Shown one piece after another: positions 6,369 to 48,616 of a stretch of DNA of 64,000 nucleotides; the first letter of the stretch is position 1, and every line of letters starts with the position of its first letter. The notes under the pieces are model-generated. The model was not told the DNA's origin and made no database searches. It saw nothing but the letters and a program-made list of their open reading frames with translations. A program made the position numbers and the translations under genes. Origin of the DNA: Bacteroidales bacterium (GTDB taxonomy: Bacteria; Bacteroidota; Bacteroidia; Bacteroidales; VadinHA17); assembly GCA_049294075.1 (NCBI GenBank), contig JBAQCK010000111.1:2946-66945 (forward strand), read 5' to 3'.

Positions 6369-7882
6369 CTGGCTTTTATCGAGTTCAGAAGATCTGTCAA
6401 TTCCTTAACAATGGCCGGCTCGCTGCCTGCCGCATTATTCTTCTCCCCGGGGTCAGTCTTGAGGTTAAATAGCTGGTAATCGGGATCATTTCCTGTTTCG
6501 GTATTTGTATTAACCTGGATCTTCGGTCCCTGGCCAGGTTCAATCAGTTTCCAGCCGTTTCTGACAATTGAAAGCCTGGTCCGGGATGGTTGTTCCACTA
6601 TCCACTCACGGCCTTTGTCCGATATTCCGGTCAGTACATCCATGTTGTTTCTGCTGTCCGGAGCCCCGCCTTCGGGTATTGATGCTCCTGCCAGACCTGC
6701 AAGCGAAGCCATCAGGTCGATCTGGCTGAATAATGCATCGGAAACGCCTTTCTTTATCGTTCCTTTCCATGAAGATATGAATACCACTCTTGTCCCTCCC
6801 TCAAAAGCGCTGTATTTTCCACCGCGGAGCAGACCGGCAGGCTTATGTGAACCGATCAGCTCAACTGCCTGGTCCCTGTAGCCGTCATCTACAACGGGAC
6901 CATTATCGCTGGTAACAATGATGAGGGTGTTTTTCTGAAGCTTCATTCTTTTTACCGCTTTGACAATCTCTCCCACCGACCAGTCGAATTCAAGGATTGC
7001 ATCTCCCCTGGGACCCATCCCGCTTTTGCCTGCAAAGCGGCCGTGAGGAAGCCTCGGAACATGGATATCGTGGGTTGCGAAGTAGAGAAAGAATGGTTTT
7101 TCGTGATTATCTTCGATGAACTTAACTGCCTTGGAGGTAATTACATCAGCCATATCCTCATCGACCCACAATGCTGTCCTTCCGCCTGTCATGTACCCGA
7201 TACGGCTGATCCCGTTTACAATGGTCATATCGTGCCCGTGGCTGGGATGCATTTTCAGGAGCTCGGGGTTCTCCTTTCCGGTCGGCCAGTCACCGACTTT
7301 TTTACTGTAATCGACTGAAATCGGATCGGAAGGATCAAGTCCGACAACTCTTCTGTTTTCAACATAAACACATGGTACACGATCGCCTGTGGCGGGAATC
7401 AAAAAGCTGTAATCGAATCCTATATCCAGCGGTCCGGGTCTTATTTCCCCGTTCCAGTCAGGGCCTCCTGCGGGACCAAGTCCGAGGTGCCATTTACCCA
7501 CAACACCTGTTGTATATCCCGCGCTCTTTATTACTGAAGGAAGAGTGATCCTGCCGGGCGTTATGAGAGCAGAAGCATCCCCCGGCAAAACACTGGTGCC
7601 TTCACGCCTCCAGGCATATTGTCCGGTGAGCAGGGAATACCGCGAAGGGGTGCTCGTTGCTGATGTGCAATAGCCATTCGTAAAGCGAAGTCCCTGATTT
7701 GCAAGCCTGTCAATATTCGGCGTTTTCAGACGGGTTGCACCGTAGCAACTGACATCGCCATAGCCCAGATCGTCGGCAAGAATGATTATTATGTTCGGTT
7801 TTTCCGAAGGCTGGGAAAAACTCATCTGGGTCAGTGATGCCGAAATAATTCCGGCCGATCCTGTAACGAGTTTTAAGTTCAT
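6365..7882 (-). CDS. Sulfatase (arylsulfatase A-like, Ser-type)
   Basis: 505 aa. NIIIILADDLGYGD, S-T-P-S-R-YSLLTGQY, GKWHLGLG, VTSDNGP. Confidence 0.9.
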   Translation of the reverse strand: MNLKLVTGSAGIISASLTQMSFSQPSEKPNIIIILADDLGYGDVSCYGATRLKTPNIDRLANQGLRFTNGYCTSATSTPSRYSLLTGQYAWRREGTSVLPGDASALITPGRITLPSVIKSAGYTTGVVGKWHLGLGPAGGPDWNGEIRPGPLDIGFDYSFLIPATGDRVPCVYVENRRVVGLDPSDPISVDYSKKVGDWPTGKENPELLKMHPSHGHDMTIVNGISRIGYMTGGRTALWVDEDMADVITSKAVKFIEDNHEKPFFLYFATHDIHVPRLPHGRFAGKSGMGPRGDAILEFDWSVGEIVKAVKRMKLQKNTLIIVTSDNGPVVDDGYRDQAVELIGSHKPAGLLRGGKYSAFEGGTRVVFISSWKGTIKKGVSDALFSQIDLMASLAGLAGASIPEGGAPDSRNNMDVLTGISDKGREWIVEQPSRTRLSIVRNGWKLIEPGQGPKIQVNTNTETGNDPDYQLFNLKTDPGEKNNAAGSEPAIVKELTDLLNSIKAR

Positions 7883-7883
7883 T

Positions 7884-9314
7884 TTACTTACTTACTTCAA
7901 AGGAGAATGGAAAAATATCTGAAGGAACATGTGCATCATTCATCACTTGTTCCAGTTTCTTTACCAGGTCAGGATTTGATGGCGCCAGGTCAGTGGTTTC
8001 ACCTTCATCCGCCGACAGGTCATAAAGCTCGACAGTGCTTTCAGTACCTTTGCCGGCATTCAGCTTAACCGCTTTCCAGTCTCCCATCCTTACTGCCATC
8101 TTGCCTCCCTGCTCGTGGAATTCCCAGTAGAGGTATTCGTGTTTTTTCTGCTTCTTACCCAGCAATTCAGGAAGGAAAGAAATCCCGTCAATCCCGGAAG
8201 GGACATCAATTCCGGCTATTTCTGCAAGTGTCGGCATTACATCCCAGAATGCAGAAACGTGATCAGAAACGGATCCCGGTTTCACCCGGTCGGGCCATCT
8301 TACTATCATCGGTGTTCTGATTCCGCCCTCATACATATCCCTCTTGTTTCCCCTGAGGGGTCCGTTGCTTTCGAAATAGTCGGGATCGGCGCCGCCTTCA
8401 AGATGGGGGCCGTTGTCGGATGCAAAGATCACAATCGTATTTTCTTCAAGGCCAAGCTCGGCAAGTTTTTCCATTATTTCACCCACATAGTCATCAAGCT
8501 GAGTCACCATAGCTGCAAAGGCTGCATGTGATTCAGGCTGTGAACTATAGGGACCCTGTCGGAATTCAGGACCCTCATCAACGCCTTCAAATACCTTTTC
8601 AGGATCAAATTTACCCCTGAATTTTTGCATGTACTCTTCCTTTGCCACCAGTTCCGCATGGGGAATAGTTGTGGGGTAGAACATGAAAAACGGATTGTTC
8701 CTGTTCTTTTCGATGAAACTCAGGGCCTCGGCATGGATAAGGTCAGGGCTGTATGCGCCTGCGCGGCTGCTGTCATTGGCGTGCAGCAGAATCATTTCCC
8801 TGTTATGCCACAGGTGGCCGGGAAAGTAGTTATGGGCAAGCCGCTGACAGTTGTAGCCATAAAATTCGTCGAAGCCCTGGGAGTTGGGATCACCTTCGGT
8901 GTTGATATAGCCAAGTCCCCATTTCCCGTAGGCTCCTGTTGCGTAACCCTTTGTTTTCAGCATTTCAGCCACTGTAACAGATGCCGCGGGCAGAGGCCAT
9001 TGGCCTGCCGGCTTCCATTCCTTGTTTCCCCTTATGGGAGTATGACCGGTATGAAGTCCTGTCATCAGGCACGACCGCGACGGAGCGCTTACGGTGCAAC
9101 CGGTATAATGCTGCCTGAAGAGCATTCCCCGGATGGCAAGCCTGTCGATGTTAGGGGTTGCAAATTTCTTTTGCCCGTAACAGCTAAGGTCGCCATAGCC
9201 GAGATCATCGGCAAGGATGTAAACAATATTGGGAAGAGGCTTTTCCTTTCCTGCCTGGGAGCAGGATACAACTGCAAGCGAGGTGCAGATAGTCAGGGGG
9301 ATGGTTGGTTTCAT
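7884..9314 (-). CDS. Sulfatase (arylsulfatase A-like, Ser-type)
   Basis: 476 aa. NIVYILADDLGYGD, S-A-P-S-R-SCLMTGLHTGH, GKWGLG, FASDNGP. Confidence 0.9.
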   Translation of the reverse strand: MKPTIPLTICTSLAVVSCSQAGKEKPLPNIVYILADDLGYGDLSCYGQKKFATPNIDRLAIRGMLFRQHYTGCTVSAPSRSCLMTGLHTGHTPIRGNKEWKPAGQWPLPAASVTVAEMLKTKGYATGAYGKWGLGYINTEGDPNSQGFDEFYGYNCQRLAHNYFPGHLWHNREMILLHANDSSRAGAYSPDLIHAEALSFIEKNRNNPFFMFYPTTIPHAELVAKEEYMQKFRGKFDPEKVFEGVDEGPEFRQGPYSSQPESHAAFAAMVTQLDDYVGEIMEKLAELGLEENTIVIFASDNGPHLEGGADPDYFESNGPLRGNKRDMYEGGIRTPMIVRWPDRVKPGSVSDHVSAFWDVMPTLAEIAGIDVPSGIDGISFLPELLGKKQKKHEYLYWEFHEQGGKMAVRMGDWKAVKLNAGKGTESTVELYDLSADEGETTDLAPSNPDLVKKLEQVMNDAHVPSDIFPFSFEVSK

Positions 9315-9376
9315 CGGGTTACAGGTAGTTTAAAGTCCTGCTTGCTGCGCGGAAGCAGGGTTATGATATGCTGGTA

Positions 9377-10435
9377 TTACAATTTTCTTATCCCGATCGT
9401 AAAAGCCTTGCCCGGGTTTTTTACCAGTATCTGGTCGATATCATCGTCGGTAAAACCCTTGGTTCTGAGGGCCGGCAAAAGGGCATTAAAGATGTCATTA
9501 TAACCGTTGAAGTTTCCTCCTCGCGGCTTTGCGGGATCATACCATCCGGAATCGTGAGAGATCAGTACTTTGTCAAGGAGACCTTCATCCTTAAGCCGGG
9601 TAATCCTGTCAGCATACCATTCCACACTGTTAGGGGAGCCGGGTTCGATATTCCTTATCCGGATGTTATCGAGAGAGATCCAGGTTCCTTCTCTTGCAGC
9701 CCTTATATTTCCTTCAATGGTTCCTCCCTGGGCATGAACCCAGATGAAGGCAGAAGGATCGGCGCCGCATTGCTTAAGGATTTCAATTTGTTCAAATGCC
9801 GGACCGTCAGGTCCAGTGTGTGATGCGATCACCAGTCCGGTTTCAAGATGGGTAAGTGAAGCTGCTTTGATGATTTTCTGGTGTTCAGGGGAAAGATGAT
9901 CGTCGGGATTCACCGCGATCTTTATAAATCCAGGTTTGATTCCTGTTCCCTCGATCCCGTTTTTGTATTCATCGATCCACAGAGCAGCAATTTCCCCGGG
10001 ATCCAATTCATAAAAACTCTGTGGGATGAATTTGTTGCTCTGGGCTCCGTAGTAGCCGGTGTTGGTAATGAAGTTCACCCCTGAAACCCTTGACAGGGAT
10101 TTCAGCAATAAGGGATCTCTTCCCAACCATTGAGGGGTGGCCTCGACTATAGTCTTTACTCCGTTTTGCTTTGCCTCCATTACAATGGGAAGAGCCCTTG
10201 CAATGACCGAATCCCTGTTCCACCTGAAATACCCTGTACTGTCGGCACCGATGAAATCCACCAGGATATGCTCGTGTTCAAGGGTAATGCCCATCCTGCC
10301 GGGCGATTCAGGTCCGTTAACGGTCATGACCATTTCATCCGGCACTCGCTTGCAGGTAATGATCACTATACCGAAAAGAAGGAAGAGTATAAGCCATAAA
10401 ATGATCTTAAAATCATCAAAATCATCCATTTCCAT
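9377..10435 (-). CDS. Phosphotriesterase-family (PTE/amidohydrolase-fold) protein with an N-terminal membrane anchor
   Basis: 352 aa. Metal-ligand pattern of the PTE family: GITLEHEHILVDF (HxH), GFIKIAV (Lys), IASHTG, IWVHAQGG, LISHDSGW. N-terminal hydrophobic helix FKIILWLILFLLFGIVIITC. First gene of the minus-strand sulfatase operon. Confidence 0.75.
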   Translation of the reverse strand: MEMDDFDDFKIILWLILFLLFGIVIITCKRVPDEMVMTVNGPESPGRMGITLEHEHILVDFIGADSTGYFRWNRDSVIARALPIVMEAKQNGVKTIVEATPQWLGRDPLLLKSLSRVSGVNFITNTGYYGAQSNKFIPQSFYELDPGEIAALWIDEYKNGIEGTGIKPGFIKIAVNPDDHLSPEHQKIIKAASLTHLETGLVIASHTGPDGPAFEQIEILKQCGADPSAFIWVHAQGGTIEGNIRAAREGTWISLDNIRIRNIEPGSPNSVEWYADRITRLKDEGLLDKVLISHDSGWYDPAKPRGGNFNGYNDIFNALLPALRTKGFTDDDIDQILVKNPGKAFTIGIRKL

Positions 10436-10628
10436 AAGCTTTGTTTTTTCTGGGTTACACCGGCAATAAAAATAAGATAATTTATCGAAATACAGGTAAC
10501 CCTTAACAATATCATTATGGCTCCGTCATTTTCGTTTTTAATCTCTGTTTTTCTTTTTCATTTCAGGATTTTCCTTGGTGACGGGTAATTTAGCATAATA
10601 TGACCAACAGTTTTGTTATTTTTGCACG

Positions 10629-11435
10629 ATGGAAAATATTTCTGGGCTGATTGCCGGCAAGCATATTATATTCTGCAACTGCGGAGGCGAAAGAATTGAT
10701 AACGGATTACTGAAGGATGTTGAAGGACATCTTGGGAAAGTACCCTCAAGGGTCACCAGGTTGTCGGACCTGTGCGGCTTAGCCGCAAGAGAGAAAGATA
10801 AACTGACTGATTTGTTTTTAGCTGGTGAAGATTGTCTTGTCATTGGCTGTCATAGAAGGAGCATGGATATTTTGTTCGGGCAGGCCAGGGATTTGAACGC
10901 CCCCTCTCCTCTTTTCAGTCACCTCAATCTTATTGATTCATCTTTCTCAGAAGCTGCCAGGCAGATTGACGAATTCTGCGGGAACCAGAACGGAACGCCA
11001 CTGGTAACCGATATTAAAGAAGAATCAGGATGGCCCTCGTGGTATCCGGTTATCGATTATTCGAGATGCACCTCCTGCGGCCAGTGCGCTGATTTCTGCC
11101 TCTTCGGGGTTTACAGCAAGGAAGAAGGCCGCGTATTGGTTGCCAATCCTGAGGGTTGCAAGAACAATTGTCCTGCTTGCGCAAGGATTTGTCCTGCCAC
11201 TGCCATCATCTTCCCAAAATACAGGCACGGAGGTGCAATAGGCGGTTCGGATGAGATAGACGAACAGTCGGAGCAACAGAGGCAGGCACATGATATTGAA
11301 GAATTTTTGGGTAACGACATATACCAGGCCCTGCAGGTAAGGAAACTGAAAAGGCAGTCGATTATCAGAAAAGAGGCTATGAAAAAGGCGCTTTCGGAGA
11401 GGGACAGGGCTCGCGATGAATCATCTTTAATTTGA
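10629..11435 (+). CDS. 4Fe-4S dicluster ferredoxin-domain protein with a Cys-containing N-terminal domain
   Basis: 268 aa. CTSCGQCADFC ... CKNNCPACARICP form two ferredoxin-type Cys motifs. The N-terminal domain carries FCNCGG and IGCH. A charged C-terminal tail follows. Lies 9 nt upstream of the radical SAM gene. Confidence 0.7.
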   Translation: MENISGLIAGKHIIFCNCGGERIDNGLLKDVEGHLGKVPSRVTRLSDLCGLAAREKDKLTDLFLAGEDCLVIGCHRRSMDILFGQARDLNAPSPLFSHLNLIDSSFSEAARQIDEFCGNQNGTPLVTDIKEESGWPSWYPVIDYSRCTSCGQCADFCLFGVYSKEEGRVLVANPEGCKNNCPACARICPATAIIFPKYRHGGAIGGSDEIDEQSEQQRQAHDIEEFLGNDIYQALQVRKLKRQSIIRKEAMKKALSERDRARDESSLI

Positions 11436-11444
11436 ACATAAGCA

Positions 11445-12623
11445 ATGTCGATATATAAAAATTTTATCAATGCTGACAGAAAATGCCGGAGAAAATTTCT
11501 GGTAAACATGGGATGGAAAGGCTTTCTTGGTTTCAGCAAATTCCGAAGGAGAGTCCGGAAAGGTTTGCCTTTCCCTGCTTTTCAATTCATTTCATTAACA
11601 AACGACTGTAACCTTCGGTGTCAGGGATGCTGGGTCACGGCTGCCGGCAAGCCTGATTACATGCCTCTTGAAAAGATTAATTCAGTTATTGAAGACGGGA
11701 AAAGGCACGGATCGTATTTCAACGGGATACTAGGAGGAGAACCTCTTATGCATCCGGATCTGATGGAAATCTTCAGGAAGCACCAGGATTGCTATTTCCA
11801 GCTATTCACAAACGGCACCATGCTCACCAGGTCAGTTGCCTCGGAACTACGGAAAAACGGCAACGTTACACCTTTGATAAGTCTTGAAGGAGATGAACTG
11901 GTTGCCGACGTCCGCCGTGGAGGAAACAACATATACAACAGGACTATTGAAGCTATTCGTATTGCCGTGTCGGAGAAACTGATAACCGGTGTGGCTATCA
12001 GCGTCTGCAAATCTAATATTGAGATGGCCCTTTCTGATGAATTTGTAAATAAACTTCATGATCTGGGTGTCATTTATCTCTGGTACTACATCTACCGTCC
12101 GGCCGGGAGCAAGCCCAACTATGATCTTGCTCTTGATGCTGATGAGATACTGCGGCTCAGAAAATTTCTTGTTGACGGACGGACCAGGTTTCCGATGGTC
12201 TTGATTGATTCCTACTGGAGCGCGAAAGGTGAGCCATTTTGCCCGGCAGCCGACGGACTGAGTCATCATATAAATGCTGCCGGCTACATTGAGCCTTGTC
12301 CTGTTCTGCAGATTGCTGCCAACAGAATTAAACCGGGCGATTTGAAATCACCTTATGATGGTTCTGAGTTTCTGAGGGATTTCCGGGAGCAGATACACCT
12401 TAAAACGAAGGGCTGTGTACTGATGGAAGATCCTGTCTGGGTGAAAGCTTTCAGTGAAAAGCATCATGCTCTTAATACCTCGAACAGGCCTGAATACCTG
12501 GATGCTCTTGAGAGGGCACCGCGACTGCCAAGTCATGGATCGATTCCTGCGATCCCTGAGAGGAACTTCATTTACAGGTTTGCTAAACGAACTGCATTTT
12601 TTGGAATGGGAGCTTATGGATAA
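11445..12623 (+). CDS. Radical SAM protein (MoaA/NifB/PqqE-like core)
   Basis: 392 aa. TNDCNLRCQGCW is the CxxxCxxC motif, followed by GGEPLMHPD. Further Cys residues occur in the C-terminal part (FCPAADG...EPCPV...GCV). The stop overlaps the next gene's start by 8 nt. Confidence 0.8.
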   Translation: MSIYKNFINADRKCRRKFLVNMGWKGFLGFSKFRRRVRKGLPFPAFQFISLTNDCNLRCQGCWVTAAGKPDYMPLEKINSVIEDGKRHGSYFNGILGGEPLMHPDLMEIFRKHQDCYFQLFTNGTMLTRSVASELRKNGNVTPLISLEGDELVADVRRGGNNIYNRTIEAIRIAVSEKLITGVAISVCKSNIEMALSDEFVNKLHDLGVIYLWYYIYRPAGSKPNYDLALDADEILRLRKFLVDGRTRFPMVLIDSYWSAKGEPFCPAADGLSHHINAAGYIEPCPVLQIAANRIKPGDLKSPYDGSEFLRDFREQIHLKTKGCVLMEDPVWVKAFSEKHHALNTSNRPEYLDALERAPRLPSHGSIPAIPERNFIYRFAKRTAFFGMGAYG

Positions 12624-14232
12624 CATAAATCAGAATATTAAGGAAGTTGAATTGGAAGCTGTTTTGCCTCTGGTTGTTCCATTGGTAAATGAGCAGCGTG
12701 ATGAGATCAGGAGGAAAGTGAAGAAATTCTTCTCTGAAAGGAAGATAATGCCGCCTGTATCATACGATCAGCTGGCAGTTTATGCCGGTATCCTCATATC
12801 GGAAAACAACTGGGACGAAAGTCATAAGGCATTTGTAATGGTATGCGGGGGAAATGAAATATGGAGGCCTATAGTTGGTTCCATACCATTCGACCGCCGT
12901 ATGCTTCTGCTCCCGATGTGCCTAAGAAACAGTAAACTATGCACGGGAGTGGAAGATGAGCTTGGCCTTTTGTGCAGTGAATGCGGAAACTGCAATATCT
13001 GCTGTTTCCTGAAAGAAGCCGAGGACCTTGGATACATCACGATTGTGGCAGAAGGTACGACAATTGCAACCCGCCTTGTCGAAAGCGGCAAGGTTGATGC
13101 TGTCGTAGGTGTGGGTTGCATGGAAGTGCTTAGAAAAATGTTCAGTTCGGTAACAAAATATTCGATTCCGGCTATTGGGATTCCACTTGTTACCTGCGGA
13201 TGCAAGGATACACAGGCCGATGCTCTCTGGGTGAGTGAGGAAATCAATTACATAGACAGAAATTCAGATTTTAAATTATTGAACATCAATAATCTGAAAG
13301 AAAAGACCTCTGCCCTCTTCACGGAGGCACGAATTGACAGCATGCTTGGACTTGCCGGTTCCTTAACGGGAAAGATGGTCAGGGAGATGCTTATGGCCGG
13401 AGGCAAAAGGATCCGTCCATTGCTCACCGTTCTTGCCTATGAGGCATTCGACAGTGATCCGGATCAGGATCTCCTTGCTCATCTGGCAATGTCGGTGGAG
13501 TGTTTCCACAAAGCCTCCCTGGTTCACGATGACATTGAAGACAATGATTCATTCAGGTATGGAAAGGAGACTATTCATACCCGCTACGGGATACCTGTTG
13601 CCATTAATCTGGGTGATCTTCTTATCGGTGAGGGCTACAGGCTGCTGGCTGAAAGCGGTCTGTCTCAGGATCGCACGGGTGAGTGCTTTAAAGCAGTTGC
13701 ACAGGGTCACAGGGCAATGTCGATTGGACAGGGAGATGAACTTATGGCCCGGCACGACGGAAGGATACTCACCATGGATGAAATTATTGAGGTTTTCAGG
13801 AACAAAACCTCTGCCGCCTTCAAGGTGTCACTGCAGGTTGGGGCTATCGCGGCAGGCGCTGATAAGAAAACGCTGGACCTGCTTGAACAATTCAGCGACC
13901 TGATCGGAATCGCTTATCAGATGAAGGATGACCTTGAGGATTTCACAGTCGCAAACGGGTTTTCATCATTTGATGATCAGTCGATTCTGATTTCACTTCT
14001 GGCCGGGCAGGCCGGGCCCGCTGACCTCAGTGTTGTCACCGGAGCATTGAAAAACAAGAGTATGAAGGAACTGCATCCCATCGCGGAAAAATATCACATC
14101 AGGGAACAGATAACAACGATGCTTGCAGAGTATCTGGAGAAGACATACCAGTGCGTGGAAAATTTCGCCAACCTGAGGCTGAAACTTGCCCTGAATGAGA
14201 TAGTGGGAAAAACTTTCGGAGATCATGTTTAG
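12616..14232 (+). CDS. Fusion protein: DUF116-like Cys-rich domain + trans-polyprenyl diphosphate synthase
   Basis: The track ORF starts at 12454, but the in-frame ATG at 12616 (MDNINQ) overlaps the upstream stop, so I call the start there. N-terminal half: LLLPMCLRNSKLC...CSECGNCNICCF...VGVGCMEV...GIPLVTCGC, matching my recollection of DUF116. C-terminal half: FARM LVHDDIED and SARM YQMKDDLED. Confidence 0.8.
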   Translation: MDNINQNIKEVELEAVLPLVVPLVNEQRDEIRRKVKKFFSERKIMPPVSYDQLAVYAGILISENNWDESHKAFVMVCGGNEIWRPIVGSIPFDRRMLLLPMCLRNSKLCTGVEDELGLLCSECGNCNICCFLKEAEDLGYITIVAEGTTIATRLVESGKVDAVVGVGCMEVLRKMFSSVTKYSIPAIGIPLVTCGCKDTQADALWVSEEINYIDRNSDFKLLNINNLKEKTSALFTEARIDSMLGLAGSLTGKMVREMLMAGGKRIRPLLTVLAYEAFDSDPDQDLLAHLAMSVECFHKASLVHDDIEDNDSFRYGKETIHTRYGIPVAINLGDLLIGEGYRLLAESGLSQDRTGECFKAVAQGHRAMSIGQGDELMARHDGRILTMDEIIEVFRNKTSAAFKVSLQVGAIAAGADKKTLDLLEQFSDLIGIAYQMKDDLEDFTVANGFSSFDDQSILISLLAGQAGPADLSVVTGALKNKSMKELHPIAEKYHIREQITTMLAEYLEKTYQCVENFANLRLKLALNEIVGKTFGDHV

Positions 14233-15067
14233 GCTTCTTGCAACTCCTTATATAAAGAAGTTTGAAGGGAAAAGCCCTGAAAAGATCCTGAAGCTTTCCC
14301 TGAACCTTCTCGACCCGGGATTTACCGCGAACCTTAGGGATTATGTCAGAACTTCGCAGACACAATCGGGCGGGTTTAAGGACAGGGCAGGAAATCCTGA
14401 TCTTTATTATACTCTTTTTGGCTGGTTTGTTGCGGATGCTCTTGGAATGAAACAGGAGTGCTCACTTGTCTGGCCTTATGTCAGAACGGAGATAAGACTG
14501 AAGGAGCCGGAGGGAGTATATCTCCATTGTGCTGCAGTCTTGTCGGCTGTAAACGGGCAGGCAAAGTTTTTCAGGAAATCATTCGGCGCAAAACTGAGGC
14601 AGTCTGCAGGAATGAAGGATCAAAAACTTTACGGATCTTTCCTGAGCCTTTTGAGTTTTTATTACCTGATGGATTTCAGAGGTTTGTTCCGGATCAGGCA
14701 AAATCTAAGGTCGGTTACAGGAATTGACACCCTCCCCTGCCCGGTTACTTCAGCATCACTTGTTCTCAGCAAGAGTTTCAGGGAGCCTGTGGACGGACTT
14801 ATTAATGTTCTTATGACATTTTATGACGGAAAGGGAGGTTTCAGGGCAACACATTCCACCACAATGGCTGATCTGCTTTCCACTGCCGTTGCCTTATATG
14901 CCCTCCGGTTTGCCGGATATGACCTCAGGGAAATAAAACCGGACTCGCTCGATTTTGCAGATTCACTATTCAGGGATGGAGGTTTTTCCGGTCATCCGCT
15001 TGATCCGGATCCCGATATTGAATACACTTTTTATGGCCTGCTTGCACTGGGCTCACTGAATGATTAA
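14225..15067 (+). CDS. Prenyltransferase/squalene-oxidase repeat protein (single alpha/alpha-barrel size)
   Basis: 280 aa. Repeated GGF motifs typical of the terpenoid cyclase/prenyltransferase alpha-alpha toroid: SGGFKDRAGNPDLYYT, KGGFRATHS..ADLLSTAVALYAL, DGGFSGHP...EYTFYGLLAL. Overlaps both neighbours by 8 nt. Confidence 0.65.
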   Translation: MFRLLATPYIKKFEGKSPEKILKLSLNLLDPGFTANLRDYVRTSQTQSGGFKDRAGNPDLYYTLFGWFVADALGMKQECSLVWPYVRTEIRLKEPEGVYLHCAAVLSAVNGQAKFFRKSFGAKLRQSAGMKDQKLYGSFLSLLSFYYLMDFRGLFRIRQNLRSVTGIDTLPCPVTSASLVLSKSFREPVDGLINVLMTFYDGKGGFRATHSTTMADLLSTAVALYALRFAGYDLREIKPDSLDFADSLFRDGGFSGHPLDPDPDIEYTFYGLLALGSLND

Positions 15068-16871
15068 TACCGACATGGACAGAATTACTCAAAGATACAA
15101 CGAACTTGTTGCTCAGCTTATCGATAAACGCAATTCTGAAGGATTCTGGACAGGCAGACTTTCGACCAGCGCCCTGTCGACCTCAGTGGCAATTGTCGCC
15201 CTGAAACTTTCAGGGAATACCGAAGACCATAGCAGAGTTGAAGCTGGTTTTACATGGCTCTGTCGCAACATAAATTCAGACGGAGGCTATGGTGACACAC
15301 CGGAGTCGGTAAGCAACCTGAGCACCACTCTTCTTTGCTACTCCGCAATTCACTTCTGCCAGAAAGGAGATTCGGGGAAACATGTTATTGCTGCAATGGA
15401 TAAATGGCTTGCCGGTTACGGCATCAACATTAATTCCTCGGATGTTGTGCGTTCTATTCTGGATGTTTACGGAAACGATTACACGTTTTCGGTTCCGATA
15501 CTGTCGATGCTTACACTTTGCGGTGTCTTGCCCGCGTCTTCGCTGGATAGTATACCCCGCCTGCCCTTTGAACTTACCCTGCTGCCTGCTTCCTTATACA
15601 GGTTCCTGAATCTGAAGGTTGTAAGCTACGCACTCCCTGCACTAATCGGCGTTGGAATATACCATCACAGCAAAAGAAGCAAAGGCATACCTGGAATCAG
15701 GCAGATAAGGGAGAAACTCATAGGGCCAGCCATCAAAAAACTTGACGGACTTCTGCCCGAAAGCGGAGGCTTTCTTGAAGCCATTCCACTGACGGGCTTT
15801 GTTGCCATGTGTCTGATAGATTGCGGAAAGACCGAAAATGATACCGTTTGTAAGGGACTTGATTTCCTGCGCAAACAGCAACGGGAAGAGGGTGGATGGC
15901 CCATCGACACGGATTTGTCGACCTGGGTGACTACCCTGTCAGTCAAGACTCTGGGAGAAGATATAAACATGGTACTGAAACAAAAGGAAATCGATGCCCT
16001 CAGAGCTCACCTCCTTAAACTTCAATATAAAACCATCCATCCTTTCAATGGAGCAAATCCCGGCGGATGGGGCTGGACAAGCTATTCAGGCTCCGTTCCC
16101 GATGCTGACGACACTCCCGGGGCTATCCTTGCACTCCTGCTTCTCTTTACAGGAAAAGAGGCCGAGATTGCCGCTGTTGAAAATGGCTGCAAATGGCTTA
16201 CAGGCCTGCAGAATAACGACGGAGGATTTCCAACCTTCTGCAGGGGCTGGGGTAAACTGCCCTTTGACCGGAGCTGCGCCGATCTTACCGGACATGCGCT
16301 TCTTGCCATGCTGAAATCGGTTGAAATCCTTCATGATAAAATGAACAAAAAGCTGCTTGCTGATATCGACAGGACTATCTCAAAGGCAACCGCTTACCTG
16401 GAAAAGCACCAATCGGATGAGGGATCCTGGCTGCCTCTGTGGTTTGGCAACCAGCTGACTGCTGACAAAACCAATCCGGTGTACGGCACGGCGAAGGTGT
16501 GCATTTACCTTAGCGATTCACTAAGCTTTAAACGTCCGGGAAAAGATTTCATCACCAGGATAGATATTATGGTAAGGAAGGCGCAGGGATTTCTTCTGAA
16601 ACAGCAAAACATCGACGGAAGCTGGGGAGGGAAGTCAGGGATTGAAGGCTCGATTGAAGAGACCTCGCTGGCAGTAAGCGCCCTTGCAGAAGTATACACT
16701 GATGAGTGTCAAAGAGGTATCAACTGGCTTCTCAGCCGCGGAAATATTACTGCCGCGCCGATTGGCCTCTATTTCGCCATGCTGTGGTACGATGAAGAGC
16801 TTTACCCACTAATTTACCATGTTGAAGCCCTGCGGAAATACATAAAATATCATGGAGGTGGGGAAAAATAA
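15060..16871 (+). CDS. Class II terpene cyclase (squalene-hopene cyclase superfamily)
   Basis: 603 aa. DxDD proton-donor motif VPDADDTPGAIL. Several QW-type repeats: FLRKQQREEGGW, YLEKHQSDEGSW, FLLKQQNIDGSWGG, WLTGLQNNDGGF. Confidence 0.8.
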   Translation: MINTDMDRITQRYNELVAQLIDKRNSEGFWTGRLSTSALSTSVAIVALKLSGNTEDHSRVEAGFTWLCRNINSDGGYGDTPESVSNLSTTLLCYSAIHFCQKGDSGKHVIAAMDKWLAGYGININSSDVVRSILDVYGNDYTFSVPILSMLTLCGVLPASSLDSIPRLPFELTLLPASLYRFLNLKVVSYALPALIGVGIYHHSKRSKGIPGIRQIREKLIGPAIKKLDGLLPESGGFLEAIPLTGFVAMCLIDCGKTENDTVCKGLDFLRKQQREEGGWPIDTDLSTWVTTLSVKTLGEDINMVLKQKEIDALRAHLLKLQYKTIHPFNGANPGGWGWTSYSGSVPDADDTPGAILALLLLFTGKEAEIAAVENGCKWLTGLQNNDGGFPTFCRGWGKLPFDRSCADLTGHALLAMLKSVEILHDKMNKKLLADIDRTISKATAYLEKHQSDEGSWLPLWFGNQLTADKTNPVYGTAKVCIYLSDSLSFKRPGKDFITRIDIMVRKAQGFLLKQQNIDGSWGGKSGIEGSIEETSLAVSALAEVYTDECQRGINWLLSRGNITAAPIGLYFAMLWYDEELYPLIYHVEALRKYIKYHGGGEK

Positions 16872-17037
16872 ACCGGATTTATCCTAATGATAAATTACTC
16901 TATTCGTGATCAGAAATCATTTTTTCTTTTTGACGCTTATATGGCGAACAAAAATGAAAACATGGGTGAAATTTGTAAATTAAGGTTATAGTAAGAATTT
17001 AATAATCATATCAACTAACAAAAAAGCTTTAAGAAGG

Positions 17038-18330
17038 ATGAAAACAGGAAAATTATTGACAGCAGTGCTGGTTGCAATGCTCAGCATTTCGAATTTAATG
17101 GCTCAGGACTGGCCTCAGTTCCTCGGACCTGACAGGAACAGCAAGTCGGCAGAAAAAGGTATTCTCCGCACATGGCCTGCCAATGGTCCGGAAGTGCTGT
17201 GGACAGCAAATGTAGGACCAGGTTTTGGCGGACCTGCAATCAAAGCAGGAAAAGTATATCTTCTCGACAGGGATGACAAAGTGGGTGAAACTCTCAGGTG
17301 TTTTGACCTCAATACAGGCAAGGAACTCTGGAAGTACAGTTACAGCGCTCCCGGATCTGTTCAGTTTCCGGGTTCACGGTATGTTCCGACCGTTGACGGG
17401 AATTATGTGTATTCAGTGGGTCATAACGGGGATATATACTGCATCGATATAAATACTCACAAGCCGGTCTGGAATAAAAACATCTGGACTGATTACGGAG
17501 GAGAAAAGCTTCCTACATGGGCAATTACGCAATGTCCGCTCGTTTATGGCGATATTGTCCTTGTGGCCTCACAGGCTCCTCAGGCCGGTGTTGTGGCATA
17601 TAACAAACTTACCGGCGCCGTTAAGTGGAAGACTCCTTCACTCGGCGCTGTGGGCTATGTAAGTCCTGCGATTGTAAAAATATCTGGTGAGGACCATGTT
17701 GTAATGGTAACAGCATCGAAAAGAGGCGGAGGAATGGGGAAAATTGTAGGCATTAAACCTCAGGACGGAAAGATACTCTGGGAGTATGCTGACTGGAACT
17801 GCAATATTCCCGTTGCAAGCGCAGTTGATGCAGGCCAGAACAGGATTCTTGTCGCCGGAGGATATGAGCTTGGAACAGTAATGATTAAAGTGGATAAAAA
17901 GGCTGACGGATCGTTCACTGTAAGCGAGCTCTTCAAGCATAACAATTTTGGTGAGCACACAAAACCTCCTATCCTGCATAACGGTTATTTCTATGGCCAA
18001 TTTTCGACCAACAGCAAGCGCGACGGACTGGTCTGCATGGATATGAACGGAGAAATAAAATGGAAAACAATGAGATCACCCAACTTTGACAAAGGCAGCA
18101 TGATCCTTGTCGACGGCCTGATCATTGCAACTGACGGAGCAAACTCCCTCTACCTTATTGATCCGAGCCCCGAAGGCTACAAGCAGCTTGCCACGGCAAA
18201 AATGCTTAATGCTGCTGAAGGCGCGGACGCCAGGTTTGCAACACAGAACTGGGCTCCGATTGCACTTTCAGGCGGAAAACTTCTGATAAGGGACCAGGGC
18301 CAGATGAAATGTGTCAAGGTGACCCGATAA
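17038..18330 (+). CDS. PQQ-like (BamB/YVTN-type) beta-propeller repeat protein, signal peptide (paralog 1)
   Basis: 430 aa. Signal peptide ...ISNLMAQ, then DWPQFLGPDRNS...VLW. Repeated ...G.VY......G.L.C.D..TG...W blades. Confidence 0.75.
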   Translation: MKTGKLLTAVLVAMLSISNLMAQDWPQFLGPDRNSKSAEKGILRTWPANGPEVLWTANVGPGFGGPAIKAGKVYLLDRDDKVGETLRCFDLNTGKELWKYSYSAPGSVQFPGSRYVPTVDGNYVYSVGHNGDIYCIDINTHKPVWNKNIWTDYGGEKLPTWAITQCPLVYGDIVLVASQAPQAGVVAYNKLTGAVKWKTPSLGAVGYVSPAIVKISGEDHVVMVTASKRGGGMGKIVGIKPQDGKILWEYADWNCNIPVASAVDAGQNRILVAGGYELGTVMIKVDKKADGSFTVSELFKHNNFGEHTKPPILHNGYFYGQFSTNSKRDGLVCMDMNGEIKWKTMRSPNFDKGSMILVDGLIIATDGANSLYLIDPSPEGYKQLATAKMLNAAEGADARFATQNWAPIALSGGKLLIRDQGQMKCVKVTR

Positions 18331-18375
18331 TGATTCCGGTGACGGAAAACAACCTTCAAAGCATCGACAACTCCA

Positions 18376-18666
18376 ATGAGAACCCTGTTTAAAAAGATTG
18401 AAGAAAAAGATATGCCTGAGAAGTTCACTCCTATCAGGCTTCTTTTCTTTAGTCTGTTATGCTCGGTGTTCTTCATCTATCCCAACATCACATTCTTTTC
18501 CATGGAACGCGAGCACCTTGGGGAGTCAAAAAACACGATGCATCTTATGTTCTTTATTTTCAGATATCTTTATTTCGCAGGCCTGACATGGTTTCTTATT
18601 AGCGTCAATCTGAGGAAGCTGAAGACTCCTTTTTTTAGTAAACGTTTGCTGTATTTCTTCCTTTAA
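18376..18666 (+). CDS. Small hydrophobic protein; possibly the N-terminal remnant of a LytS-type sensor kinase
   Basis: 96 aa with 2-3 hydrophobic segments. It ends 10 nt before a LytTR response regulator, where Bacteroidota normally encode a ~350-aa sensor kinase. No kinase domain is present. Confidence 0.3.
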   Translation: MRTLFKKIEEKDMPEKFTPIRLLFFSLLCSVFFIYPNITFFSMEREHLGESKNTMHLMFFIFRYLYFAGLTWFLISVNLRKLKTPFFSKRLLYFFL

Positions 18667-18676
18667 ATGATCTGAC

Positions 18677-19279
18677 ATGAGAATTCTGATTGTGGAAGAC
18701 GAAACTGCAGCCTGCGAAAATCTGGCAGTGATCCTGAAGGAAATTGAACCAGAAATTCAGATTGCAGGCTGTACAGAAAGCATTACCCAGACAGTCAGAT
18801 GGTTGAAAAACAATGAGCTGCCTGATCTGATCCTGATGGATATCCATTTGTCGGACGGTTCGGCTTTCTCTGTTTTTGATAAACTTACAATAGAAACACC
18901 GGTTATTTTCACTACGGCTTTTGATCAGTATGCCATAGAAGCATTTAGGGTCAACAGCATCGATTATCTGCTTCAGCCTGTAGGTATTGAAGAGGTTTCA
19001 TGCTTCTATACAACCGACAAGAACACCAGAGTCTGCCTGAAGAACGGCAGCTGGTATTCCTATCCAGGAACTCTTGATCAGATTGAATCCACATTGAATC
19101 CCGCGGAATTCATCCGGGCGAACAAACAATTCATCGTTGCCCGGAACAGTGTCAGGAATCTGACAATATGGTTCGACAGCCGTTTGCTTGTGACTCTTGA
19201 TGTAGAAACCCCGGAACGTATTTATGTCAGCAAAAACAGGGCAGCGGGATTCAAGGCATGGATAGTGAGGAATACATGA
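18677..19279 (+). CDS. LytTR-family response regulator, apparently shortened by an in-frame internal deletion
   Basis: 200 aa. Receiver domain MRILIVEDE...LILMDIHLSDG...IFTTAFDQYA...IDYLLQP runs directly into the mid-LytTR domain (FIRANKQFIV...). The roughly 40-aa linker and first LytTR strands expected in this family are missing. Confidence 0.7.
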   Translation: MRILIVEDETAACENLAVILKEIEPEIQIAGCTESITQTVRWLKNNELPDLILMDIHLSDGSAFSVFDKLTIETPVIFTTAFDQYAIEAFRVNSIDYLLQPVGIEEVSCFYTTDKNTRVCLKNGSWYSYPGTLDQIESTLNPAEFIRANKQFIVARNSVRNLTIWFDSRLLVTLDVETPERIYVSKNRAAGFKAWIVRNT

Positions 19280-19511
19280 CCCTGATGCCCCGGAACCGGA
19301 ATTGAAGACTGGAACATAAAAAGATGTTAAAAAACATTAAATTTTAGTTTGCGGAAGATGTTGACAAGCATGATTTTATAGTTGATTGAAGTAGTTTTTA
19401 TATCTTGCGGCCACAACACTCAAATCTGTTTAAACTCAGGCTAAAATAATTATTGATAGTATTATGAAGTACTGTAAATCAACTATTAAAATCAAAAAAA
19501 TCCCAATATGA

Positions 19512-19569
19512 AACCCACATGTATCAAATACACAAACACGTATGTATATAAATTTCAAACATGTGGGTT
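19512..19569. repeat. 11-bp perfect inverted repeat (AACCCACATGT / ACATGTGGGTT) with a 36-nt spacer
   Basis: Arms at 19512-19522 and 19559-19569, read directly. The right arm ends 34 nt upstream of the ATG at 19603. Confidence 0.8.
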
Positions 19570-19602
19570 CCATCAGACCTTAAAAATCAAAATTATATAC
19601 TT

Positions 19603-20934
19603 ATGAAACGAATTCTGACAATATTGCTTTCCCTTATAATTATTGGCGCCATAGGATATGGAGTCTTCTATCTGATTTCCCAGGATCCTGAAGTATCCGC
19701 CAATCCATCTGAAAATTCCTCGGTTACGATTGAAGACAATGAAGTAACCGGATGGAGGGAAGACGACCGGTCGGGGATATCCTCAGAAAAAGGATTGCTT
19801 AAATCGTGGCCTGATGGCGGACCCGGACTTATCTGGTCAACCAATGAATTGCCCAAGGGACACTCCTCTCCCACTTTCGGGAACAACACTATTTATATCA
19901 CAGGTCTGGAAGAACCAAATGATGTGCTTGTTGCCCTTGATCCTTCAGGAAAGATCAAATGGAAAACTCCTTACGGAAGATACTGGGAGAAGTCAAATCC
20001 GGAAAGCAGATGTACACCAACGGTGGATGGTGAAAAAGTTTACGTATCCAGCGGATTCGGTGACCTGGCATGCATAAACGGCATTTCCGGTGAAATTATA
20101 TGGTCGCAGAAGGCAAGCGAAGAGAATGGAGGAACATACGGTCCCTGGGGTATAGCCGAATCTCCAATGATTGATGGTGAAAAACTGTATTTTACAACCG
20201 GAGGTCCTCAGACAACAACAATAGCACTCAACAAGAATTCAGGTGAGCTTATCTGGAAATCGGAGAGCGTCAATGATCCTGCTTCTTATCTTTCTCCGAC
20301 TCTGGTAGAGAAAGCAGGGACAAAAATTCTGGTAAACCTAACACCACGATACATTTTTGGCATTGATGTTTCGGATGGAACCATGCTTTGGAAAATAAAC
20401 CACAGGGAGGCTCTGGGCAAATCCGATATCAACGATACCGGCCAGATTTTATGTGTCACTCCGGTATCTTCAGGTAATATGATTTATATGACCGGAGGAT
20501 ATGATCACGGAGGTGTGATGATTGACATGGGCGATGACGGTAAAAACGCTACTTTTGCATGGAAAAACGAGATTCTGGATGTTCACCATGGCGGGGTTGT
20601 CGTTGTTGATGGCTATATTTACGGAGCGAACTGGATAAACAACGGAAACGGCAACTGGTGTTGCATCGACTGGAAAACAGGCAAGCTCATGTGGGAGGAA
20701 CACTGGAACAACAAGGGATCAATTATAGCCGCTGACGGCATGCTTTATATCTATGATGAACGGAAGGGTTCAGTTGGTTTGCTCAGACCCGATCCGTCAA
20801 AGTTTGATCTGGTGAGCAGTTTTAATTTTAAAGGCGGATCAGGCCCATACTGGGCACATCCCGTTATCCACAACGGTGTGCTTTATGTAAGGCATGGTGA
20901 AGCTCTCAATGCATATGATATCAAGGAAAAATAA
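19603..20934 (+). CDS. PQQ-like beta-propeller repeat protein, N-terminal membrane anchor (paralog 2)
   Basis: The track ORF starts at 19561. I prefer the ATG at 19603 (MKRILTILLSLIIIGAIGYGVFYLI is the anchor). GWREDDRSG...LIWS is followed by propeller blades. Confidence 0.75.
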   Translation: MKRILTILLSLIIIGAIGYGVFYLISQDPEVSANPSENSSVTIEDNEVTGWREDDRSGISSEKGLLKSWPDGGPGLIWSTNELPKGHSSPTFGNNTIYITGLEEPNDVLVALDPSGKIKWKTPYGRYWEKSNPESRCTPTVDGEKVYVSSGFGDLACINGISGEIIWSQKASEENGGTYGPWGIAESPMIDGEKLYFTTGGPQTTTIALNKNSGELIWKSESVNDPASYLSPTLVEKAGTKILVNLTPRYIFGIDVSDGTMLWKINHREALGKSDINDTGQILCVTPVSSGNMIYMTGGYDHGGVMIDMGDDGKNATFAWKNEILDVHHGGVVVVDGYIYGANWINNGNGNWCCIDWKTGKLMWEEHWNNKGSIIAADGMLYIYDERKGSVGLLRPDPSKFDLVSSFNFKGGSGPYWAHPVIHNGVLYVRHGEALNAYDIKEK

Positions 20935-22375: not shown

Positions 22376-22376
22376 T

Positions 22377-23291: not shown

Positions 23292-23467
23292 ATAAGTTAA
23301 CCAGACCGGAGTTTTTAAGGAAGCTTGCAAGAAGTCTCTTGCTTGCCTTTCTTGCTTTTCTTGCACTTGCTCTCGGATCACGGACTGTAAGCGGAAAGGA
23401 TTGTTCAACCTGTCCGGGAAAAGGACTCTGTGCCGGAGACAACGACTGCAGTAAATACTCAAAATGA
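23288..23467 (+). CDS. Untracked 59-aa ORF: Tat-like/anchor N-terminus + four-Cys tail
   Basis: My own translation: MNKLTRPEFLRKLARSLLLAFLAFLALALGSRTVSGKDCSTCPGKGLCAGDNDCSKYSK. ATGA overlaps occur at both ends (23288-23291 and 23464-23467). It falls below the 60-aa cut-off of the track. Confidence 0.4.
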   Translation: MNKLTRPEFLRKLARSLLLAFLAFLALALGSRTVSGKDCSTCPGKGLCAGDNDCSKYSK

Positions 23468-24030: not shown

Positions 24031-24036
24031 CTGAAG

Positions 24037-39131: not shown

Positions 39132-39174
39132 ATTTGCTGTTTCCTGATTTTCTCAAACAAGTCCCTGGAATGTC

Positions 39175-40440: not shown

Positions 40441-40481
40441 GATTTATAGTTGTTTTCTTAATAAACTGAAATATGACAGAA

Positions 40482-40796
40482 TTATTCCATGAAAAACACC
40501 TGTTCGAGTGGTATGCTTACAGGTGAATTGTCGGGATTTGTCTCCATGATATCGGCCATATACTTCCACCATTTCTTTACTATTTCCCCGGCACCGAGAT
40601 CCTGTGAGGAACTTTCACCCGATTGTTCCTGGTATGCAAAAAGTATGTTAGTCTCCTCATCATAAAAGATCGAATAATTGCCAACGCCCTGACTTTTAAG
40701 CAACCTGACAAGCTCAGGCCATATTTCACTGTGCCTCTTTCTGTACTCTTCCCTGAAACCGGGATAAAGCTTCATTTTGAACGCAAATCTCTTCAT
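40482..40796 (-). CDS. rhaM: L-rhamnose mutarotase
   Basis: 104 aa. MKRFAFKMKLYPGFREEYRKRHSEIWPEL...NYSIF is typical of RhaM. Confidence 0.85.
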   Translation of the reverse strand: MKRFAFKMKLYPGFREEYRKRHSEIWPELVRLLKSQGVGNYSIFYDEETNILFAYQEQSGESSSQDLGAGEIVKKWWKYMADIMETNPDNSPVSIPLEQVFFME

Positions 40797-40805
40797 TGTT
40801 TTCAG

Positions 40806-48604: not shown

Positions 48605-48616
48605 TAATATCAGTTT

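Follow-up and report, generated by a model that had tools for sequence, protein, structure and literature searches.

A candidate operon for squalene-independent cyclic terpenoid synthesis around an SHC-like cyclase in a Bacteroidales bacterium

A 64,000-nucleotide (nt) stretch of DNA from a Bacteroidales bacterium of the VadinHA17 lineage (assembly GCA_049294075.1, contig JBAQCK010000111.1, positions 2,946 to 66,945 of the forward strand; the whole stretch is called here the window, and its own numbering is used throughout) contains a compact group of five genes, g1 to g5, on the + strand between positions 10629 and 16871. The genes encode an iron-sulfur protein, a radical S-adenosylmethionine (SAM) enzyme, a fused polyprenyl diphosphate synthase, a toroid protein and a class II terpenoid cyclase, and their coordinates are collected in Table 1. 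An earlier note on this DNA had described five + strand genes with junctions from 9 nt to -8 nt, and the coordinates of the open reading frames (ORFs) confirmed this arrangement, the four consecutive junctions being +9, -8, -8 and -8 nt. The three -8-nt overlaps, which are ATGGATAA, ATGTTTAG and ATGATTAA, have the form ATGnnTAA/TAG, where the start codon lies over the stop codon of the previous gene. Overlaps of this kind are typical for translational coupling, which suggests that g1 to g5 form a translationally coupled operon. The start of g3 was placed at ATG 12616 rather than at GTG 12454 given by the ORF lister, because the former is backed by the gene call in locus L004 (538 amino acids, aa), which comes from a relative 87% identical, and by the alignment of 70 orthologues. 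The long start of g2 is backed by conservation from D11 onward, and an alternative start of g5 at Met6 would give a 598-aa protein, as in P0001, which is the window's own cyclase. The -7 promoter element of Bacteroidota has the consensus TAnnTTTG. The sequence TATTTTTG, located a few bases 5' of the g1 ATG in the divergent intergenic region, fits this consensus and is a putative promoter element. A scan of positions 10300-17200 for sigma-70 promoters and intrinsic terminators gave no more sites than were found in shuffled sequences, and such a scan is uninformative for a promoter of the Bacteroidota type.

Table 1. Position, strand and supporting evidence of the features at the operon and directly beside it
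Feature	Position (nt)	Strand	Evidence
Divergent intergenic region between a phosphotriesterase-family gene (- strand) and g1; presumed operon promoter region	10436-10628	.	sequence read
g1: 268-aa iron-sulfur protein	10629-11435	+	Fer4 family matches
g2: 392-aa radical SAM enzyme with one auxiliary-cluster ("twitch"-like) signature	11445-12623	+	PF04055
g3: 538-aa DUF116 + trans-polyprenyl diphosphate synthase fusion	12616-14232	+	PF01976, PF00348
g3, DUF116 cysteine-rich domain	about 12814-13239	+	PF01976
g3, polyprenyl synthase domain	about 13372-13947 and onward	+	PF00348
g4: 280-aa single alpha/alpha-toroid protein with prenyltransferase-type repeats	14225-15067	+	PF00432
g5: 603-aa two-domain class II terpenoid cyclase	15060-16871	+	SQHop_cyclase_N + _C
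Redox/beta-propeller cluster, possibly associated with the operon	17038-31614	+	family searches, recurrence in other loci

No NCBIfam model reached its cut-off for any of the five proteins. The catalytic motifs that had earlier been read in them were all located, and their residues are conserved in at least 95% of the orthologues of the operon genes. The cyclase contains the DxDD motif as DADD at residues 348-351, together with QW repeats (QxxxGxW at 274, 451 and 516, and QxxxGxF at 384), the synthase contains both DDxxD motifs (DDIED at 305 and DDLED at 438), the radical SAM enzyme has the CxxxCxxC motif as CNLRCQGC at 55, and the preceding 2x[4Fe-4S] protein has two four-cysteine motifs.

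The g5 protein matched the Pfam families SQHop_cyclase_N (PF13249) with 69 bits and SQHop_cyclase_C (PF13243) with 102 bits, and consists of two alpha/alpha-toroid domains. Its DADD motif is encoded at positions 16101-16112, and the residues D348, D350, D351, H412, Y475, G476 and T477 reach at least 95% conservation. In the profile alignment the sequence VPDADDT of g5 was placed on PDVDDT (374-379) of the squalene-hopene cyclase (SHC) of Alicyclobacillus acidocaldarius, and NPVYGT on YLYGT (493-497), while the equivalence of H412 to H451 of the SHC comes from the resemblance of motifs only (DLTGH versus DVTAH), outside the printed alignment. We take the acid aspartate, H412 and Y475 of g5 to be the counterparts of D376, H451 and Y495 of the SHC. 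Judged by these residues, g5 keeps the class II protonation machinery, which consists of DxDD, histidine and tyrosine.

The scores of g5 against the named cyclase families were low. It reached 77.6 bits against the SHC model TIGR01507 (cut-off 431.1), 95.9 bits against TIGR01787, the subfamily of SHC and oxidosqualene cyclase (OSC) (cut-off 322.7), and 73.2 bits against the OSC model (cut-off 851). For a set of 52 diverse cyclases, which were g5 and 51 relatives, the best E-values were 2e-33 for SHC, 5e-44 for SHC/OSC and 4e-35 for OSC, and all of them stayed far below the cut-offs. The closest solved relative of g5 is the A. acidocaldarius SHC, with 50.6 bits, or 81.7 bits when the family profile is used. 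A search of 1.8 billion representative proteins with the cyclase returned 476 clusters (50% identity) at E<=1e-30. The 150 best representatives all reached 358 bits or more, and 148 retain DxDD, mostly in the form VPDADDT.

The polyprenyl synthase expected to supply the substrate is the C-terminal part of g3, which combines DUF116 (PF01976; 96 bits versus a gathering threshold of 25) with polyprenyl_synt (PF00348; 148 bits versus 27). This architecture was found in all 120 g3 homologues listed. Among 70 orthologues the segment FHKASL(I/V)HDDI(E/Q)D is invariant, as are D305, D306, D309 and D439, and g3 also contains the GGKRxRP, KT and GQ motifs. A small residue at position -5 or -4 before the first DDxxD permits products longer than C20, and the A-S pair at these positions also occurs in heptaprenyl and octaprenyl synthases. 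The small residues that the earlier note had pointed out here proved to be nearly invariant, with A300 (-5) in 69 and S301 (-4) in 70 of the 70 orthologues, whereas the residue at -5 is Y or F in the closest solved geranylgeranyl diphosphate (GGPP) and farnesyl diphosphate (FPP) synthases. Because alanine and serine occupy the chain-length positions in nearly all 70 orthologues, the product of g3 is probably longer than C20. The PF00348 match ends at profile position 192 of 251, and the C-terminal tail gave nothing meaningful in Pfam at E<=1; the only solved relative that aligns through this C-terminal part is component 2 of heptaprenyl diphosphate synthase (9kp1_B). In the DUF116 domain seven cysteines, C102, C109, C120, C123, C126, C168 and C196, are at least 95% conserved. 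The AlphaFold model of this domain, with a predicted local distance difference test score (pLDDT) of 80, consists of a helical bundle followed by an alpha/beta core, and the fold search in the Protein Data Bank (PDB) gave no match above a template modelling (TM) score of 0.28, the top ones being cobalamin modules of methionine synthase, which were not significant. An earlier HHpred analysis of DUF116 indicated a flavodoxin-like fold, for which a role in electron transfer was suggested, and the fusion of DUF116 to a synthase has been noted once before, in Psta_0175 of Pirellula staleyi (PMC5898192).

The g4 protein matched the Prenyltrans family (PF00432) with 33 bits, and its AlphaFold model is a single alpha/alpha toroid (pLDDT 90, predicted TM score 0.89). 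The Foldseek search related this model to class II terpene cyclase domains, the beta subunit of Rab geranylgeranyltransferase and MstE with TM scores of 0.46-0.64, all at E>1e-3, and the sequence search against the PDB gave no match at E<=1. The protein does not contain DxDD, and conservation falls on the residues of its structural repeats. In some lineages the cyclase carries a g4-like domain fused at its N-terminal end, as was found by BLASTP in P0131, P0165 and P0257, and by sequence inspection in P0187. Because g4 is a single toroid and natural g4-g5 fusions exist, g4 probably partners the cyclase as a subunit.

The radical SAM enzyme g2 matched PF04055 with 67 bits at residues 49-180, and C55, C59 and C62 of its CxxxCxxC motif are conserved in 67 orthologues. 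Four further cysteines, C188, C266, C285 and C324, reach at least 95% conservation in the same orthologues, and C266-x13-G280-x4-C285 fits the twitch/SPASM pattern CX9-15GX4C. By this count the extra cysteines of g2 are predicted to be enough for one auxiliary cluster of the twitch type, and not for a full SPASM domain with its seven cysteines. The nearest solved relatives are BlsE and SkfB (34-39 bits), the best NCBIfam matches are twitch/SPASM maturases, all below cut-off, and the C-terminal 192 aa had no Pfam match at E<=1. The g1 protein matched Fer4 families at residues 138-199, where a 2x[4Fe-4S] ferredoxin domain is followed by a charged tail. The two cluster motifs are CTSCGQCADFC at 147 and CKNNCPACARIC at 177, and their cysteines C147, C150, C153, C157, C177, C181, C184 and C188 are at least 95% conserved in 60 orthologues. 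The N-terminal domain of about 130 aa (positions 10629-11033) had no Pfam match even at E<=1; it contains C16, C18, C49 and C74, which are at least 95% conserved in the same 60, mainly Bacteroidota, orthologues, and are replaced in the Schlesneria orthologue. These cysteines may form an extra, lineage-specific site for a metal or a cluster. The simplest role of g1 would be that of a dedicated reductant of g2.

The relatives of g5 are labelled "squalene--hopene cyclase" by both the Joint Genome Institute (JGI) and NCBI, and the JGI label "squalene-hopene/tetraprenyl-beta-curcumene cyclase" is a generic orthology name. Such labels, as well as the two-domain SHC architecture with DxDD and QW motifs and the SHC as the best solved relative, would agree with a divergent hopanoid-type pathway, in which g5 cyclises squalene made elsewhere in the genome, g2 is an analogue of the adenosylhopane synthase HpnH that adds the 5'-deoxyadenosyl radical, and g3 supplies FPP. 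A Bipolaricaulota cluster containing DUF116, IspH, SHC, "adenosyl-hopene transferase" and polyprenyl synthetase points in the same direction (bioRxiv 10.1101/2025.11.21.689855). However, g5 and its 51 relatives all missed the SHC and SHC/OSC cut-offs, g5 by more than 200 bits, and g2 reached only 41.4 bits against HpnH (TIGR03470; cut-off 225.05), which ranked about 16th among generic twitch/SPASM families, many of them unrelated. The C-terminal half of g2 has no family match. Both a canonical SHC/hopanoid locus and the identity of g2 with HpnH were rejected on these scores. No squalene/phytoene synthase (SQS_PSY), amine-oxidase or hpn family was found among the five operon genes and 27 other ORFs scanned, which are part of the window ORFs, and no squalene-supply genes were present in the annotated flanks of loci L001-L004. 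The view of the earlier note that this is not a standard hopanoid locus was borne out by these data. Additionally, the alanine at -5 in g3 speaks against an FPP synthase, and canonical SHC is reported to be missing or exceedingly rare in Bacteroidota (2026 preprint, bioRxiv 10.1101/2025.07.29.667474). A divergent hopanoid-type pathway is thus quite unlikely.

The distribution of the operon was analyzed with one genome per species. A cyclase relative is encoded in at least 549 species-level genomes, and the best 80 of the at least 549 loci were fetched, their gene content being determined by tblastn with the window proteins. The data showed that all five genes are collinear on one strand in 57 of the 80 loci, so the synteny proposed as a check in the earlier note is present in other genomes. 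Among the remaining loci, 10 are on contigs too short for judgement, 5 have the cyclase alone, and 8, all from Planctomycetota, are partial or rearranged. The collinear block is present in the cultured Draconibacterium orientale DSM 25947, D. mangrovi, Sunxiuqinia elliptica, Tangfeifania diversioriginum and Maribellus, and also in metagenome-assembled genomes (MAGs) labelled Fibrobacteres, Verrucomicrobiota and Bryobacterales. Altogether, the fetched loci span Bacteroidota, Fibrobacteres, Verrucomicrobiota, Planctomycetota, Acidobacteriota and Sumerlaeota. In Schlesneria paludicola (L080, Planctomycetaceae) all five families were detected by Pfam in a rearranged order, in which the radical SAM gene, on the opposite strand, is followed by genes of a CobW-like GTPase, a DegT aminotransferase and a GcvH-like protein, and then by the ferredoxin, cyclase, DUF116-synthase and toroid protein genes. 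In a Prolixibacteraceae genome with a cyclase identity of 61% the block is intact, while the flanking genes are entirely different. Because the block is kept amid different flanks at this identity, it is a selected unit and not an inherited neighbourhood. The synteny across phyla also rules out a chance juxtaposition of the five genes. Bacteroidota make up the majority of the best 80 loci, and many of these come from anaerobic digesters. The earlier remark that anaerobic Bacteroidota do not commonly have class II cyclase clusters therefore holds only for canonical SHC, and does not hold for cyclases of the g5 type.

In several carriers other genes are located within or beside the block. A GTPase of the CobW/HypB/UreG type, which is a metallochaperone family, is encoded directly 3' of the cyclase in six Bacteroidota loci (L010, L015, L017, L023, L024 and L038; about 9860-9940), while in Planctomycetaceae (L068, L072, L076, L079, L080) and Bryobacterales (L078) it adjoins the genes of the radical SAM enzyme or the ferredoxin, being upstream of the operon in Bryobacterales. 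In Planctomycetaceae, genes for a DegT aminotransferase and a GcvH-like protein are present as well; these two and the CobW-type GTPase are not in the window. In the Draconibacterium MAG of locus L062 an ABC transporter pair, consisting of a 314-aa membrane protein and a 227-aa ATPase, lies between g4 and g5 (6359-7973), and Maribellus maritimus (L063) has a gap of the same size in the same place, which probably contains the same insertion. The ABC pair may serve the export of the product.

As g2 comes closest in NCBIfam to twitch/SPASM maturases, though below cut-off, and alpha/alpha toroids also occur in LanC, complement thioester-containing (TED) domains and glycoside hydrolases, the operon could in principle be non-terpenoid, with toroids that bind something else, a radical SAM enzyme and ferredoxin that mature a peptide or other substrate, and a vestigial synthase-like domain. 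Three prenyl-related domains occur together in one operon, however, and strong purifying selection acts across phyla on DxDD with its histidine and tyrosine and on both aspartate-rich motifs of the synthase, while no conserved ORF of a precursor peptide was found. A non-terpenoid function is therefore very improbable.

Cyclases similar to g5 have been recognized before as a group. The "SHC-like" cyclases were defined by Santana-Molina et al. (2020), by whom the Planctomycete members are described as keeping the residues for catalysis, and the genomic surroundings of these members as pointing to a non-squalene precursor (PMC7306690). A later phylogeny (Mol Biol Evol 2025) presents the "SHC-like" clade as one with neither function nor structure determined, places it in the Planctomycetota-Verrucomicrobiota-Chlamydiota (PVC) and Fibrobacterota-Chlorobiota-Bacteroidota (FCB) groups, Spirochaetota and Acidobacteriota, and makes it sister to epoxy-polyprenyl cyclases, which use chains joined head-to-tail throughout (PMC12414744). 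According to the same study, the stem of the clade has excess substitutions on the surface that forms the SHC-type dimer, and its gamma domain was grouped with the triterpenoid type (PMC12414744). The g5 family has the corresponding profile, that is, a range over PVC, FCB and Acidobacteriota, a length of 550-700 aa, divergence from SHC and OSC, and retained catalytic residues. By taxonomy, length, divergence and context g5 hence fits the "SHC-like/unknown" clade, and a partnership of g4 with g5 would fit the altered dimer surface reported there (PMC12414744).

The existence of the cyclase clade, which is functionally orphan, is thus already known. The five-component module, the proposed role of g4 as a partner subunit, the predicted twitch assignment of g2, the conserved chain-length residues of g3 and the linked redox cluster described below are new. 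The main texts of the two phylogenies (PMC7306690, PMC12414744) contain no description of the five-gene module, of g4-g5 fusions or of a linked redox cluster. Literature searches that paired SHC with polyprenyl synthetase, radical SAM and ferredoxin, or with Prolixibacteraceae, found nothing, and a 2026 review of lipid-modifying radical SAM enzymes has no mention of the system under the terms sought.

Taken together, the gene content makes it moderately probable that g1 to g5 are a translationally coupled operon for a squalene-independent cyclic terpenoid, in which a head-to-tail chain would be made, cyclised and tailored by radical chemistry. In the first step, the C-terminal domain of g3 would elongate a polyprenyl diphosphate of the all-trans, head-to-tail kind to more than C20, plausibly C30-C40. 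In the second step, g5, probably acting in a complex with the toroid protein g4, would protonate the terminal double bond via the central aspartate of DxDD and cyclise part of the chain. In the third step, the twitch-type enzyme g2 would tailor the chain or the cyclised product in an oxygen-independent radical step, for which the multi-cluster ferredoxin g1 would reduce g2, while the cysteine-rich DUF116 domain fused to the synthase would add a further metal or redox center. The product would most likely be a membrane lipid. Substrate identity, chain length, the sequence of the steps, the roles of the radical SAM enzyme and DUF116, and the lipid nature of the product are all inferred.

Several observations weigh against this proposal, most of them concerning the synthase. 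The rule on alanine and serine at the chain-length positions is not absolute, as it is broken by type III GGPP synthases. In FPP synthase structures, the RRG sequence after the first aspartate-rich motif and a lysine after the second one bind the diphosphate and isopentenyl diphosphate. In g3 the RRG sequence is changed to R-Y, with R314 invariant and residue 315 being tyrosine in 68 of the 70 orthologues, and the positions 443-469 after the second motif contain no lysine conserved among them. These atypical stretches, residues 307-316 and 438-469, are encoded at positions 13534-13563 and 13927-14020 of the window. The synthase domain might then bind or ionise a prenyl diphosphate instead of elongating it. 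Furthermore, g3 reached none of the NCBIfam chain-length equivalogs, its best score being 128 bits versus 450. Because RRG is changed and the lysine is not conserved, canonical elongation by g3 is likely but not certain. Regarding the other genes, five loci (L028, L034, L070, L073 and L075) have the cyclase with none of the other four genes within 8 kb, the fit of g5 to the "SHC-like" clade is by taxonomy, length, divergence and context rather than by a tree with the published references, and the absence of squalene synthase covers the scanned window ORFs only, not the rest of the genome.

The operon is followed on the same strand by a redox/beta-propeller cluster, to which no named family fits. 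This cluster encodes five N-terminally anchored beta-propellers of the PQQ_2 type, a 319-aa protein, a small 188-aa ferredoxin, a NapH/MauN-like polyferredoxin, a NuoE-NuoF fusion and a protein similar to HoxU and the N-terminal part of NuoG. Orthologues of its core adjoin the cyclase operon in L022-L025, L035 and L052, where the cyclase identity is 51-55%. In L028, in which the cyclase has no g1-g4 neighbours, the cluster is kept, and in P0181, which is 44% identical to g5, the cyclase runs on into an orthologue, 40% identical, of the propeller encoded at 20894-22375. The cluster is missing from other loci, for example L001. It may be functionally tied to the cyclase operon. In the window the cluster is interrupted at 18376-19279 by a decayed two-component system, in which the LytS-type histidine kinase (18376-18651) retains the first 92 of 346 residues of the L003 version, and the LytTR response regulator (18677-19279) has about 51 internal residues fewer than that of L003.

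The presence of this electron-transfer cluster bears on another explanation, according to which the operon belongs to a meroterpenoid or cofactor pathway. There, a prenyl chain would be attached to a non-terpenoid acceptor, for example a quinone-like one, which the radical SAM enzyme would build or couple, the synthase-like domain of g3 or g4 would be the part that transfers or binds the prenyl group, and the cyclase would fold the prenyl tail of the conjugate. The product could then serve the neighbouring NapH-like and NuoEF-like proteins. The recurrence of the NapH/MauN-like polyferredoxin cluster beside the cyclase would be consistent with such a pathway, but the cluster is missing from many loci. 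Similarly, the fold of g4 resembles beta subunits of protein prenyltransferases and the meroterpenoid cyclase MstE, although the Foldseek E-values were all above 1e-3 and g4 has no conserved zinc-type or aspartate-rich catalytic constellation outside its structural repeats. The loss of the second arginine of RRG and of lysines after the second aspartate-rich motif in g3, as well as the inclusion of the meroterpenoid cyclase Lon15 in the sister clade (PMC12414744), also agree with it. On the other hand, neither a UbiA- or ABBA-type prenyltransferase nor a gene for acceptor biosynthesis is conserved in the block. We consider a meroterpenoid or cofactor pathway unlikely, and retain the squalene-independent cyclic terpenoid as the preferred product of the operon.

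The other neighbours of the operon are of a more ordinary kind. The divergent upstream flank at 4842-10435 (- strand) contains two sulfatase genes and a phosphotriesterase gene, identified by tblastn, and a third sulfatase inferred from the annotation of L003 and L004. This flank is common to the close relatives only (L003-L009) and not to the distant carriers. At 47363-50556 a gene of a lysine-2,3-aminomutase-like radical SAM protein is followed by two D-Ala-D-Ala-ligase/ATP-grasp genes, apparently unrelated to the operon. The regions 54699-62347 (- strand) and 37764-41834 (- strand) hold the BatA-BatD/MoxR/DUF58 "aerotolerance" operon and the rhamnose genes RhaA, RhaT and an FGGY kinase, which are ordinary Bacteroidota content.

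In the 2020 and 2025 phylogenies (PMC7306690, PMC12414744) the "SHC-like" clade stands out as the major branch of terpenoid cyclases for which no substrate, product or structure is known. According to the latter, knowledge of its substrate would constrain how the evolution of alkene-initiated and epoxide-initiated cyclisation relates to the rise of oxygen (PMC12414744). The five-gene context leads to a testable hypothesis of a dedicated head-to-tail polyprenyl substrate, a toroid subunit for the cyclase and an integral iron-sulfur and radical SAM chemistry. Because strains that are cultured and tractable carry the operon (Draconibacterium orientale DSM 25947, Sunxiuqinia elliptica, Tangfeifania diversioriginum and Schlesneria paludicola), its product could be searched for directly. 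It is a long-standing postulate that cyclised regular polyprenols serve as membrane lipids of bacteria and gave rise to the tricyclic terpanes (cheilanthanes) and polycyclic polyprenoids that are widespread in sediments and petroleum. To our knowledge, the biological source of tricyclohexaprenol-type polyprenoids has never been identified, and tricyclohexaprenol is still named as the presumed parent in the geochemical literature (PMC12980184). It is a doubtful but conceivable extension of the proposal that the operon makes such cyclised regular head-to-tail polyprenoids without oxygen, either of the tricyclohexaprenol type or longer polycyclic polyprenols. If this were true, the clade would be the missing cyclase for the parents of tricyclic terpanes, so that orphan molecular fossils would get a source, and the carriers among Bacteroidota, Planctomycetota, Verrucomicrobiota and Acidobacteriota of sediments, digesters and soil would explain how common these fossils are. 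The radical SAM enzyme, ferredoxin and DUF116 would then constitute a new oxygen-independent tailoring step.

When compared with known systems, the operon shares several features with the canonical SHC (HpnF) and hpn genes (HpnCDE, HpnH), namely the two-domain alpha/alpha toroid, DxDD with histidine and tyrosine, the QW motifs and a radical SAM gene alongside. It differs from the hpn locus in the score of g5 (77.6 versus 431 bits), in having no squalene synthase genes among the nearby ORFs scanned, in g2, which is not HpnH, and in containing the DUF116-fused polyprenyl synthase and an extra toroid protein. The class II di- and sesquiterpene cyclases, such as the ent-copalyl diphosphate synthase PtmT2 and the drimenyl diphosphate synthase SsDMS, resemble the proposed g5 reaction in being protonation-initiated and in using a prenyl diphosphate from an adjacent synthase, but their similarity to g5 is marginal (E about 1e-4) and they are shorter, about 500 aa. 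The Bacillus pathway for sporulenol, a C35 sesquarterpene, in which HepS/HepT, YtpB and SqhC take part, is likewise one where a medium-chain synthase feeds a non-hopene class II cyclase, and HepT has the ASLVHDD context that is shared by g3. In contrast to the operon, this pathway has no radical SAM enzyme, ferredoxin or DUF116. The identity of g5 with SqhC was rejected, as no YtpB or HepS family is present in the operon or its flanks and the hosts of the g5 family are Gracilicutes, while both phylogenies confine SqhC to Bacillota and make it the sister of SHC (PMC12414744, PMC7306690). The Actinomycete epoxy-polyprenyl cyclases Lon15 and AtoE, which belong to the reported sister clade, act on polyprenyl chains joined head-to-tail throughout and not on squalene (PMC12414744). 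They use an epoxide derived from O2, whereas g5 has the alkene-protonating DxDD, and the operon contains iron-sulfur and radical SAM genes and no monooxygenase. In type, g5 corresponds to the "SHC-like/unknown" clade itself, whose members, like g5, are divergent from SHC and OSC, keep the catalytic residues, measure 550-700 aa and occur in PVC, FCB and Acidobacteriota, and nothing contradicts the membership of g5.

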